DNA of 45,070 nucleotides, taken from the IMG/VR virus record IMGVR_UViG_2585427760_000004; one strand, 5' to 3'. Of this stretch, positions 27,001 to 30,000 are shown in pieces; position 1 is the stretch's first letter; the number at the start of each line of letters is the position of its first letter. The position numbers were made by a program. This DNA comes from a virus. Its lineage: Duplodnaviria; Heunggongvirae; Uroviricota; Caudoviricetes.

Positions 27001-30000
27001 TGCCCAGTCCGGGCAGGCTGTGCTCCATACAGGTATCATCCGTTGCCCTCATTATCGTTATTCACCACCAGTCGGGGGGGCGGTGGCACCGCAAAACGGT
27101 TAGCCGCTTTTTTCGCGGCATCACCTTTTGCCGATTTTTTCCCGGTATCCCCTTTTTTATGGTGCGTGAACTGCGCCAGACGCCAGGCCGCATCCAGTGC
27201 CAGTTTCGGATCAATGCAGAGGTTTTCCACCAGGATCCGCCCCATGGCTTTCACCGGATCGGGAAGACCATCCTCCATATATTCAATACCAGGAGACATC
27301 ACCGCGGACGGTGGCATCTCCAGATTGTTTTCGTCCGGCTGTGGTATTGCAGCCGCCTCACGGCGACGGGGTTTATCCTCCTGCTCTGATTTTTTCTGCC
27401 GGTAAACAGGAACCTCATCCACCTCCACCGTCTCGCATTGTTTACGGGCTATAAACGCAAGCACCTCAGGATCTTTTGCCAGCTGCGAGCCTTTAACCCT
27501 GGCGGTCTTCGCCGAATAACCGGCGGCAATGGCTGACGCTGTTTTGTTTTTCCCGGACATGAGCGCCAGCGCAAATTTTCGTTTTTGCGTTGTCAGCACA
27601 GCCTCCTCCCGGGTCCAGAACGCACTCAGCCGGGTATGGTTCAGCCCATTTTTCCCGGCGTCTCATGCCGCAAATGTTAACTGCTGCCTGGTTAACATTT
27701 GCTGAAAAAGCCTGTTAACATTTTTTCCGCACAACAAACTGAATAATAAAGATAAAAACCGCAAAAATGCCCGGGCAGCCAGTTAACATGTTAACTGCCC
27801 TGAAACGGGAATTTTTTCTCTGCGTGAGAGGGGGCGCGGTGTCCAAAGCGATCGTTTTTTACGCCGGATGATCCCCCCCGGGGTCGGGTTACAGTCCGAT
27901 GATGTCGTCCTCTCTGCCACTACCTCCGGACACCTCCGGCAGCGTCGGGTCCGGCATATCACTCGCCGCTTCACGAGCAGACTTTTGTCGATGGCATTCG
28001 GTACAGAGCGTCCAGAGATTCGTCTCCTCATTACCACCACCGAACTGAAGTGCAATTCGGTGATCGAGTTCACTGTCACAGAGGTCAACCACACGACCAC
28101 AGAGACGGCACTGCCCGGCGTCCCTGAGCCAGATATGACGCTTGAGGGAAACACGTGCACTGCCACTGACACGACGCTGTTCACCCTTCAGAATATTCAC
28201 CCGTCGGGTATTCAGTGTATTGATTCTGCTCTGGAGTGTACGAAGCTCAGCCATGTAAAATCCCCGTCATATGGCAATCAGTAAAGGAAATAAATATGTC
28301 ATCGAAAAACCGTACCCGCAGAACCACAACCCGCAATATCCGTTTCCCCAATCACATGATTGAACAGATCAACATCGCCCTTGAGCATAAAGGGTCCGGT
28401 AACTTTTCAGCGTGGGTTATTGAAGCCTGCAGGAGAAGGCTGGCAACAGATGCAACGCATCTGCGCCCGGCCAGCATGACAAATAACGAGAAATGAACGT
28501 TCGGTTACAGGAGCAGGTACCCACTGTCCTCCAACAATATTTCATCTTCATATCCGACGGAACAATACTTACCCTGCCGGGATGTACAGAATAACAACAG
28601 AGTGATAATTAATTTCTGATGAAATAATCAGTGTGCAGAAGGACTAAAGATAAACGTTTTCTTCACGCCTTTACACGGCCTGTCCTTCTCAAATCGCCAT
28701 TTTGCCATCGCCTTTACAACCTGCTCATCAAACAGATGGTGCGGCTCTGAACGAATAAACTCAATTCGGGTGACAGTACCATCAGCACCAATATCAAACC
28801 TCACATCAACCCGTCCCTTTATATAATTTGCCGCTGCATAGGCCGGATATTGTGGTAATGCCTTAACCAACTGTCGGGGCATATCTGTTTTATGTTGCGT
28901 ACAGCCCATAACCAGAGAAGACAACAAAATAATTAACGGAAGATTTCTTTTCATTTTCATTCCCCGCACAGATTAGAATAAGTCTTATTCTAACAATGCC
29001 GCCCTGTCGGTCATCAATCCTCTGCTTAATGGCAACGACAATTATCCGACTTAAATCACAAATCAGACACATGACATAACAGGGCTTGCGAGGTAACACA
29101 TCGTCCTGTTTCTTCCACCATCGCACCGGACTGGCGACTATGAGGGGACAACGCCGCGCTCCGTTAACGCGGTAAACCCCGGTGTGTATCGTTTTTGATT
29201 ATCCCCGCACACTCGCGCAGAGGAGTCTCCCTGTCGGGCTGCGGTCTCTGTTAATGAGGGAATACAGCGACGATACGGCGCATCAGCAAAACTTAGTTCA
29301 GGCACTGAGTGCGGATATAGTCCTGTGCCCCTTCCAGCTGCTTCTGCATTGTCATCAACCGTTCTCTGAAGATGAAATAATCCCGTTCAGCGGTGTCTGC
29401 CAGTCGGGGGCCGGTTGCATTATCCACGCCGGAGGTGCCGGTGGCTTCACGCACGGTACCGGAGCAGGTGGCGTTGATCCGCAGGCGCTTACGACCAGCG
29501 GCAACATCAGCACGCAGAGTTTCATTTTCAGCTCTCGCATCGGCTAATTCCCTCGAGTATCTGGCATCAAGTTCAGCGACATCACGCTGGCGTATCTGCA
29601 TATCAGTAATTGTCGCGTTCGCCAGTTTCAGCTCACTGACTTTTTTATCGCGCTGCGCTTTGTAGGTGATGGCGTTATCGCGGTAATGATTCAGCCCCAG
29701 ACTAAGCACACCACAGGCTACCAGCAGGACAATAATCACCACACACAGAACACGGTTCATATCACCACCAACGGATTGCCCAGACCAGAACAGCAATGGC
29801 CACAATACGAATGGCAAATGCCATTGCCCGAATAAGTTCAGCACTCATCTTTTTAAAGTTCACGATTTCAGCGCAATGACCAGTTTTGCCAGCCCATACA
29901 GCATCGGAGACACAGCAATACCAACAGCCACCCACTTAATAGCAAAAGCCAGCGCTCTGCTGATGTCATCAGTCACTGTCACCCCAGCAGCCCCGACGAA

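Follow-up and report, generated by a model that had tools for sequence, protein, structure and literature searches.

TonB-dependent transporters are the main gateway for iron, vitamin B12, many phages and most group B colicins and microcins, and 'Trojan horse' antibiotics make use of them. The Cor proteins of phi80/N15/T1-type phages are small outer-membrane lipoproteins that block further phage entry at FhuA. Phage T5 encodes Llp, a small outer-membrane lipoprotein that blocks further phage entry at the same receptor and binds FhuA (bioRxiv 10.64898/2026.03.26.714494). Cells that overexpress a periplasmic TonB domain are inhibited in TonB-dependent import (Howard et al. 2001, cited in PMC9841981). 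The lambda Bor/Iss proteins, in turn, are outer-membrane lipoprotein morons of the Rz-to-cos interval that are expressed in lysogens. Here we describe a gene that may touch on all of these systems, carried by a 45,070-nucleotide stretch of viral DNA (IMG/VR record IMGVR_UViG_2585427760_000004; "the window" hereafter means this whole stretch), which is a lambda-like Escherichia coli prophage with its late genes on the minus strand. The gene, called here the TonB-C gene, encodes a predicted lipoprotein; both the sequence and the predicted fold identify its mature part as a complete TonB C-terminal domain. We favor, with a probability of roughly 0.4, the reading that the protein would act as an unpowered decoy or competitor of TonB under the outer-membrane receptors. 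Public annotation already records the gene and its resemblance to TonB, and for a sister type found in phage 21 and in the LF82 prophage Perceval its status as a moron has been published.

The coding sequence of the TonB-C gene (28628–28954, minus strand, stop codon included) specifies a prolipoprotein of 108 amino acids, and the region is identical to RefSeq WP_000828071.1, "TonB family protein." The open reading frame as listed is longer (28628–28969, minus strand). We consider the second ATG, at 28954, the likelier start because it is the one chosen by PGAP in an identical E. coli locus, because it has suitable Shine-Dalgarno spacing (GGGGA at 28961–28965, minus strand, 6 nucleotides 5′ of this ATG, by sequence), and because the sister gene of phage 21 reads ATA where the first ATG would be.

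Profile searches assigned the mature part of the protein to the TonB C-terminal domain family. Pfam TonB_C (PF03544) matched with 55.3 bits against a cut-off of 24.6 (E=9e-15), TIGR01352 matched with 55.1 bits against 27.1, and the top matches of a sequence search of the PDB were the TonB C-terminal domains 8rd6, 1u07, 2gsk_B and 2grx_C (E ~1e-15). Query residues 26–104 align to TonB starting at PRALSRNQPQYP, with 36–41% identity over ~80 residues. The domain as delimited by HMMER against 1u07/2gsk/2grx covers residues 26–105 (28640–28879, minus strand; TonB ~153–232); it begins ~7 residues from Cys18 and runs as short strand, helix, strand, strand, helix, strand. In an alignment of 24 diverse sequences, Y36, P37, F75, W86 and F103, which correspond to TonB Y163, P164, F202, W213 and F230, were invariant or nearly so. 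The third strand (residues 94–103), which pairs with TonB boxes in both TonB-receptor complexes (PMC9249621), is kept, and the protein ends just after it.

Structure prediction gave the same answer. An AlphaFold run with a 6-sequence alignment reached a mean predicted local distance difference test score (pLDDT) of 61 and was unusable; the rerun with 24 diverse relatives reached a pLDDT of 87 overall and at least 96 from residue 31. The model is a three-stranded sheet packed on two helices, as in the solved TonB C-terminal domains, and Foldseek superimposed it on 1u07, on 2gsk_B (BtuB-bound) and on 2grx_C (FhuA-bound) with a root-mean-square deviation of 1.0 Å and target TM-scores of 0.88–0.92. 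The fold result agrees with the sequence result and is not independent of it, because the input alignment contained TonB domains. A fold search of BFVD returned no viral TonB-C-like structure at E ≤1e-3. The allele in the window carries Cys94 (28673–28675) and His108 (28631–28633), where the commonest allele of near-identical (type-A) loci, P0001 with 395 member sequences, has Arg and Pro; the sister type likewise has Cys at position 94. A free periplasmic cysteine beside the TonB-box-pairing strand could be relevant to disulfide formation.

The N terminus has the signature of a lipoprotein. Residues K2 and R3 form the n-region and are followed by a hydrophobic core and the lipobox LVMG before Cys18; the signal peptide with its lipobox (MKRNLPLIILLSSLVMG, then C) lies at 28901–28954 on the minus strand, with the Cys18 codon at 28901–28903 and Thr at position +2, by sequence. 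The pattern sought was a charged n-region, a hydrophobic h-region and [LVI][ASTVIM][GAS]C with the cysteine at 15–35, taken from PROSITE PS51257 and applied by eye, and the protein conforms to it. The lipobox cysteine is invariant in all aligned relatives, across clades, and the +2 residue is T, S, A or V in the family and Asp in none, which together predict an outer-membrane lipoprotein; we infer lipidation and outer-membrane sorting from these residues. The first-pass annotation of this DNA had proposed a lipoprotein with lipobox LVMGC and +2 Thr, a mature part resembling the TonB C-terminal domain, and a bor-type moron position downstream of Rz/Rz1. All three proposals were borne out, the first by the sequence and the cysteine invariance, the second by the profile searches and the structure prediction, and the third by the Rz and Rz1 genes directly upstream (PF03245 and PF06085).

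The protein is homologous to TonB (E. coli P02929, residues ~150–239; 1U07, 2GSK chain B, 2GRX chain C), with which it has the fold, the YP motif, the aromatic core and the third strand in common. It differs in that the lipoprotein signal peptide of residues 1–18 replaces the transmembrane anchor and proline-rich spacer, so the inner-membrane anchor, the periplasm-spanning rod and the coupling to ExbBD and the proton motive force are all absent. Profiles of full-length TonB equivalogs (NCBIfam PRK10819.x) scored at best 73.6 bits against a cut-off of 315, and the match was confined to the last ~80 profile positions. By these sequence measures the protein belongs to the TonB_C domain family and is not a TonB energy transducer. 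Like the periplasmic TonB fragments of Howard, Herrmann, Stratilo and Braun (2001, J Bacteriol 183:5885), it is a TonB C-terminal domain with no coupling to the inner membrane. Overexpression of those fragments inhibits iron import through the transporters (as cited in PMC9841981), and they serve as the model for the mechanism proposed below. They were reportedly soluble laboratory constructs made from TonB, whereas the protein described here is a natural, diverged paralogue, predicted to be lipid-anchored, with its own promoter.

These features suggest how the protein may act. Anchored in the inner leaflet of the outer membrane, it would hold an ~80-residue TonB-C domain ~7 residues from the lipid, where TonB boxes emerge. 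Because the protein has neither a membrane anchor nor a proline-rich rod, ExbB-ExbD would be unable to energize it. TonB-box segments would be bound by beta-strand addition to the third strand, and they could be the TonB boxes of TonB-dependent transporters or those of invaders with a TonB box of their own, such as group B colicins; an alternative partner would be the C-terminal domain of TonB itself. The outcome would be reduced TonB-dependent entry of T1/phi80-type phages, colicins and microcins, at some cost to siderophore and vitamin B12 uptake. We infer TonB-box binding and every phenotype in this scheme from the domain and its predicted location. The protein is comparable in type with T5 Llp. 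The phages of Llp and Cor use FhuA themselves, whereas the prophage in the window has a lambda-J-type tip and the target proposed here is the generic TonB box rather than one receptor. No sequence or fold relationship to Cor or Llp was found in Pfam, PHROGs, the PDB sequence search or Foldseek.

The gene is common in E. coli. An 801-bp region containing it was covered to at least 80% in 414 of 5,426 complete genomes and is shared by phages JLK-2012 and Lys8385Vzw and four Stx1a-converting phages. The sister type (72% protein identity) is present in 1,221 of the 5,426 genomes and in classical phage 21, ev017, the PhiR phages and Perceval, so that the gene is prophage-borne in ~30% of complete E. 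coli genomes (414 + 1,221 of 5,426). The phage 21 copy is annotated "TonB C-terminal domain protein" and lies after Rz/Rz1 and bor and before cos. The copy in O157 EDL933 had been annotated "partial." Comparison of the two E. coli types gave a dS of 1.66 and a dN of 0.19; the resulting dN/dS of 0.115 indicates strong purifying selection on the protein.

Relatives extend well beyond E. coli. A library-wide profile search retrieved many more proteins of 105–135 residues with a lipobox and a single TonB_C domain, and a word-indexed search traced such proteins to Klebsiella, Raoultella, Rahnella, Pantoea, Erwinia, Salmonella and Citrobacter, where all are named just "TonB family protein." A scan of genome contigs yielded just one 418-bp contig, from a Modestobacter assembly and probably a contamination, and no cross-species loci. 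The gene recurs directly after spanin genes in unrelated phage backbones: Klebsiella phage ST13-OXA48phi12.4 has a relative between its lysis genes and terminase; in a Rahnella prophage the order is Rz, small open reading frame, TonB_C, lambda-type terminase; in the P0033 clade it is DUF2514 spanin, TonB_C, HNH, terminase; and in a further, Aeromonas-like clade (L138) the spanin upstream of TonB_C resembles one from an Aeromonas phage. Copies without nearby phage genes lie on chromosomes beside lacZ/lacI in Raoultella, among metabolic genes in Pantoea, and in Salmonella, which makes the phage genes look like repeated captures from a host family rather than a phage invention. These chromosomal "TonB family protein" lipoproteins of ~110 residues (Raoultella, Pantoea, Klebsiella, Erwinia, Salmonella) have the same lipobox and TonB_C domain as the prophage protein, are 35–47% identical to it and belong to the same family by profile search; they differ in their non-phage contexts.

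The recurrent position behind the spanin genes bears on a function in lysis, namely that the protein is a lysis accessory or spanin-like protein acting late at the outer membrane. The best PHROG match is indeed phrog_1267, "Rz-like spanin," of the lysis category (E=5e-42), and the gene always lies just after spanin genes in late-operon orientation. The prophage nevertheless has a canonical spanin pair. The i-spanin gene Rz is immediately upstream of the TonB-C gene in the late operon (29293–29844 as listed or 29293–29760 with the PGAP start, minus strand; PF03245, E=6e-49), and the o-spanin gene Rz1 is embedded in it (29355–29540, minus strand; PF06085, E=2e-21), which means that spanin function is already supplied without the TonB-C gene. 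The protein has no Rz1 Pfam match and its fold is that of TonB-C, homologs reside on chromosomes far from any phage, and, as described below, the sister gene is active in lysogens whose lysis genes are silent. The spanin label of phrog_1267 was probably carried over from gene neighbors, because its proteins are TonB_C lipoproteins and true Rz/Rz1 are present. We therefore regard a lysis function as highly improbable, and by its sequence the protein is neither an Rz1 spanin nor a Cor/Llp relative.

Published transcriptome data show that the sister gene is active in a lysogen. RNA sequencing of E. coli LF82 placed LF82_160, the Perceval ortholog, ~8-fold above the silent prophage background (PMC9928086), with log2 values of 5.0–6.6 in all conditions against 2.3–3.7 for the flanking endolysin, Rz and terminase genes (PMC9928086, supplementary table). 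Because LF82_160 is transcribed amid silent neighbors, the TonB-C gene appears to be an autonomous, self-transcribed moron, at least in the sister type, the allele for which this was shown. A terminator scan found no intrinsic terminator downstream of the TonB-C gene. LF82_160 was not induced in Dulbecco's modified Eagle's medium (DMEM) or in macrophages relative to LB medium (log2 fold change 0.26, q=0.13), and the neighboring Perceval bor rose from ~4 to 11 log2 and was strongly induced in both (PMC9928086).

These data also bear on the idea that the protein is a Bor-like host-interaction or envelope factor, concerned with serum resistance, adhesion, envelope stability or peptidoglycan contact, that uses a TonB-C scaffold for a role unrelated to TonB boxes. 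The gene does occupy the genomic slot of bor, adjoins bor in phage 21 and Perceval, where the two coexist, and encodes a predicted outer-membrane lipoprotein that is expressed in lysogens and found in Stx1a-converting phages. Bor itself is unrelated in sequence and is encoded on the strand opposite to the late operon, and the missing response to DMEM and macrophages sets the TonB-C gene apart from it. Such a role would also leave unexplained why the whole TonB-C fold and the third strand are kept under strong purifying selection, and Fur control in relatives, described next, points to the iron/TonB regulon instead. We consider a Bor-like function improbable.

We scored promoters of the family for Fur boxes, taking as a Fur box a site that overlaps the promoter and matches the consensus GATAATGATAATCATTATC at ~14/19 or better or has the 7-1-7 form TGATAATnATTATCA. 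In the P0033 clade, TGATAATtATTATCA directly 3′ of the -10 element is a perfect 7-1-7 site with a 15/19 match. At the same promoter position, L105 has a 16/19 box and the chromosomal Raoultella genes have boxes of 14–15/19. The Klebsiella clade carries GATAATGTTGATTATCATT (14/19), the Aeromonas-like clade L138 carries GTTATTGAAAATCATTATC (16/19), and the chromosomal Pantoea gene, whose true start is evidently Met25 of the called product, carries TATAATGATAATGTTTATC (16/19) over a perfect -10 element. The boxes lie at L097 2967–2985, L105 2967–2985, L125 2964–2982, L138 2927–2945, L086 4969–4993 and L089 5037–5055, and they represent at least six clades, four of phages plus the Raoultella and Pantoea chromosomes. 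As background, 49 of 257,934 positions scored 14/19 or better, and these were mostly the same promoter sites on both strands or in shifted registers. No convincing Fur box was found in the two E. coli phage types, the Rahnella copy or the Salmonella copy. The best match over the promoter in the window, at 28971–28989, is 12/19, a level reached by 59 sites in the window, and we rejected it as a Fur box. Further Fur-box-like sites (14–16/19) were seen outside the TonB-C promoter, near cos/HNH/terminase (L084 5036–5060, in phage 21 near cosQ; L085 8601–8625; L105 4212–4236); these may be unrelated AT-rich packaging or integration host factor (IHF)-type sites.

The presence of Fur boxes in at least six clades indicates that the family belongs, ancestrally and in most clades, to the Fur iron-starvation regulon together with tonB and the transporters. 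From these promoter sequences, which predict iron-regulated expression in the related clades, the TonB-C lipoprotein family is likely to be iron-regulated; the E. coli phage alleles are not convincingly so. The link to iron raised by the first-pass annotation thus holds for the family and not for the copy in the window.

Iron regulation could also be read as a sign that the protein is a modulator or helper of TonB-dependent iron uptake, a phage-supplied iron accessory. A domain tethered to the outer membrane could organize the transporters on their periplasmic side, for instance by keeping TonB boxes or periplasmic binding proteins close to the barrel or by steering scarce TonB to loaded receptors. 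Canonical Fur boxes in at least six clades, including the stable Raoultella and Pantoea chromosomal copies, would suit such a role, as would the sitABCD iron/manganese transporter that Perceval also carries as morons (PMC9928086). We know of no mechanism by which an unenergized TonB domain would aid transport, and the sole experimental precedent (cited in PMC9841981) is one of inhibition. The E. coli alleles, moreover, have no convincing Fur box, and the LF82 allele did not respond to DMEM or macrophages. A helper function therefore seems unlikely to us.

The decoy reading has its own difficulties, and several observations weigh against it. Fur control in relatives amounts to co-regulation with the TonB/transporter regulon, which we count in its favor. 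The Fur-run, species-conserved copies of Raoultella and Pantoea are awkward for a pure uptake inhibitor all the same, because cells would produce it at the very time they depend on uptake. A decoy directed at the transporters would have to be strongly expressed, given how far these exceed TonB in number, and the level in LF82 is only moderate. Within the domain, R166 of TonB is implicated in contacts with the TonB box or plug, and its equivalent is Tyr in nearly all family members. The equivalent of Q160, to which the classical suppressor of TonB-box mutants, Q160L, maps (PMC11658791), is not kept either, being Leu here and L, Y or variable across the family. Many entries of the sister type are frameshifted near the 3′ end and have lost the last strand (P0012, with 130 member sequences, P0013, P0016, P0018–P0020 and P0030), and to judge from these reading frames the gene is evidently decaying in some lineages. 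PADLOC matched no defense-system family. Self-exclusion in the manner of Cor and Llp is unlikely because the tail tip is of the lambda-J type and not of the FhuA-binding type: the last 168 residues of the prophage J share 46% identity with lambda J and match other lambda-J-type prophages at 100%, and no FhuA-type tail tip was among the listed matches to the J C terminus. Finally, our literature search found no functional test of any family member.

If the decoy reading is correct, a lipid-anchored copy of the TonB docking domain would give prophages or chromosomes a new means of adjusting the TonB gateway. It could then influence the host range of therapeutic phages, competition through colicins and microcins in the gut, the uptake of siderophore drugs, and fitness when iron is limiting. 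The reading would be cheap to test because phage 21 and LF82 Perceval are already in laboratories. In the literature searched, we found no account that treats the lipoprotein-plus-TonB-C architecture as a family and no mention of its recurrent position after spanins or of its Fur boxes. A broader proposition, that the family constitutes widespread and hitherto unrecognized natural TonB decoys, ancestrally Fur-induced, repeatedly captured by phages behind their lysis genes and shielding ~30% of E. coli strains broadly from TonB-dependent phages, group B colicins and siderophore-microcins at the expense of iron uptake, is one that we hold to be doubtful.

The promoter of the TonB-C gene was re-examined along with a palindrome that overlaps it. 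The first-pass annotation had proposed the promoter TTGATG-16-TGtTAGAAT. Its extended -10 element, TGtTAGAAT (28987–28995, minus strand), is good and is conserved across clades, reading TGtCAGAAT in the sister type and TG(t/a)TAGTAT in the P0033 and Raoultella clades (cross-clade alignment of the whole promoter region is unreliable). Its -35 element did not stand: TTGATG (29012–29017) lies 16 nucleotides before the TG and 19 nucleotides before the -10 hexamer, which is too far for a -35 element. A better candidate is ATGACC (4/6; 29009–29014, minus strand), which the promoter scanner placed at a 16-nucleotide spacer, for 9/12 matches plus the TG. The scan is by itself no evidence, since it returned 2 promoter-like sites in the region where 1.8 were expected.

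The palindrome, TTAGAATAAG-a-CTTATTCTAA (28973–28993), is AT-rich, has two arms of 10 nucleotides around 1 nucleotide with 100% complementarity, and overlaps the -10 element and the predicted transcription start. With arms of at least 10 nucleotides and a spacer of at most 4, the window holds three perfect palindromes, against 0.22 expected. The other two (23341–23362 and 11748–11771) are GC-rich, RNA-type stem-loops on the late-operon strand; one lies right after the capsid gene, and the other lies shortly before J and has a T-run after it, so that it looks terminator-like. The palindrome at the promoter was also considered as an RNA hairpin or terminator, and this was rejected, as the stem is AT-rich with a 1-nucleotide loop and the terminator scan found none; its left arm, moreover, contains the -10 element and so would lie outside the transcript from this promoter.

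The first-pass annotation took the palindrome as the operator of a dimeric regulator. The palindrome itself is exact and rare by chance, as had been described; the operator interpretation fared less well. A true operator, whether a degenerate Fur site or a site for the neighboring DUF3950 protein or a host factor, would account for a perfect 10+1+10 repeat covering the -10 element and the predicted start site, for an 8+1+8 core that is retained in 64 of the 69 near-identical type-A loci, and for the repressor site (Fur) that relatives bear at about the same promoter place. Among the same 69 loci, however, only 4 have a perfect palindrome, 60 have one mismatch (CTTATTCTTA) and 5 have two, and the arm is as variable as its flanks. 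Its right arm falls within a 13-nucleotide indel that is absent from the sister type, though the sister type is expressed. No second copy or half-site was found elsewhere in the 45-kb prophage with one mismatch allowed, and an operator of the prophage repressor was rejected on this ground; as a Fur site the palindrome matches no better than the 12/19 noted above. In viral contigs, the 17-mer core AGAATAAGnCTTATTCT recurs, besides TonB-type loci, in one other context only, as AAAGAATAAGACTTATTCTTTTT in unrelated AT-rich contigs of 55–60 kb from one metagenome (L145–L218, e.g. L151 4124–4140), where it forms a terminator-like hairpin; we judged this a coincidence and rejected a regulon built on the core. 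A dimeric-regulator operator is thus rather unlikely, and the palindrome is most likely a lineage-specific inverted duplication beside the -10 element with at most an accessory regulatory role.

The surroundings of the TonB-C gene are those of a lambda-type late region. The gene has Rz/Rz1 on one side and the HNH/terminase genes on the other, and it shares the orientation of the late operon. An IraM gene of the NCCP15648 locus could not be placed on the window, whose sequence differs there. Its downstream neighbor is a convergent YlcI/YnfO (DUF3950) gene (28296–28496, plus strand) with no demonstrated link to the moron; this gene accompanies the type-A loci and not the phage 21 type, and from its sequence the product (..RNIRFPNHMIEQINIALEH..NFSAWVIEACRRRL) looks like a ribbon-helix-helix DNA-binding protein. 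Upstream, a short open reading frame, MVEETG(R/S)C(V/I)T (29056–29151 in the window, minus strand; L084 3846–3983), is partly conserved between both E. coli types and is probably non-coding. About 250 nucleotides of shared non-coding DNA around it travel with the TonB-C gene, which indicates that the mobile unit includes a long upstream leader.

On the minus strand, the order of genes is Q (36737–37426), a DNA methylase, three tRNAs (34826–35075), a NanS-type esterase, a holin, a DUF1327 gene, the lysozyme (30403–30936), Rz/Rz1, the TonB-C gene, the convergent DUF3950 gene, an HNH endonuclease, the small and large terminase subunits, capsid and portal, with J, Lom and the tail fiber farther along the late region. 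The three tRNAs, Arg-tct, Arg-tcg and Met-cat, lie 3′ of Q and the methylase, and the segment 33852–35075 includes ~1 kb without a convincing open reading frame before the NanS-type esterase. The toxin genes of Stx-converting relatives of this phage type occupy this tRNA/esterase interval.

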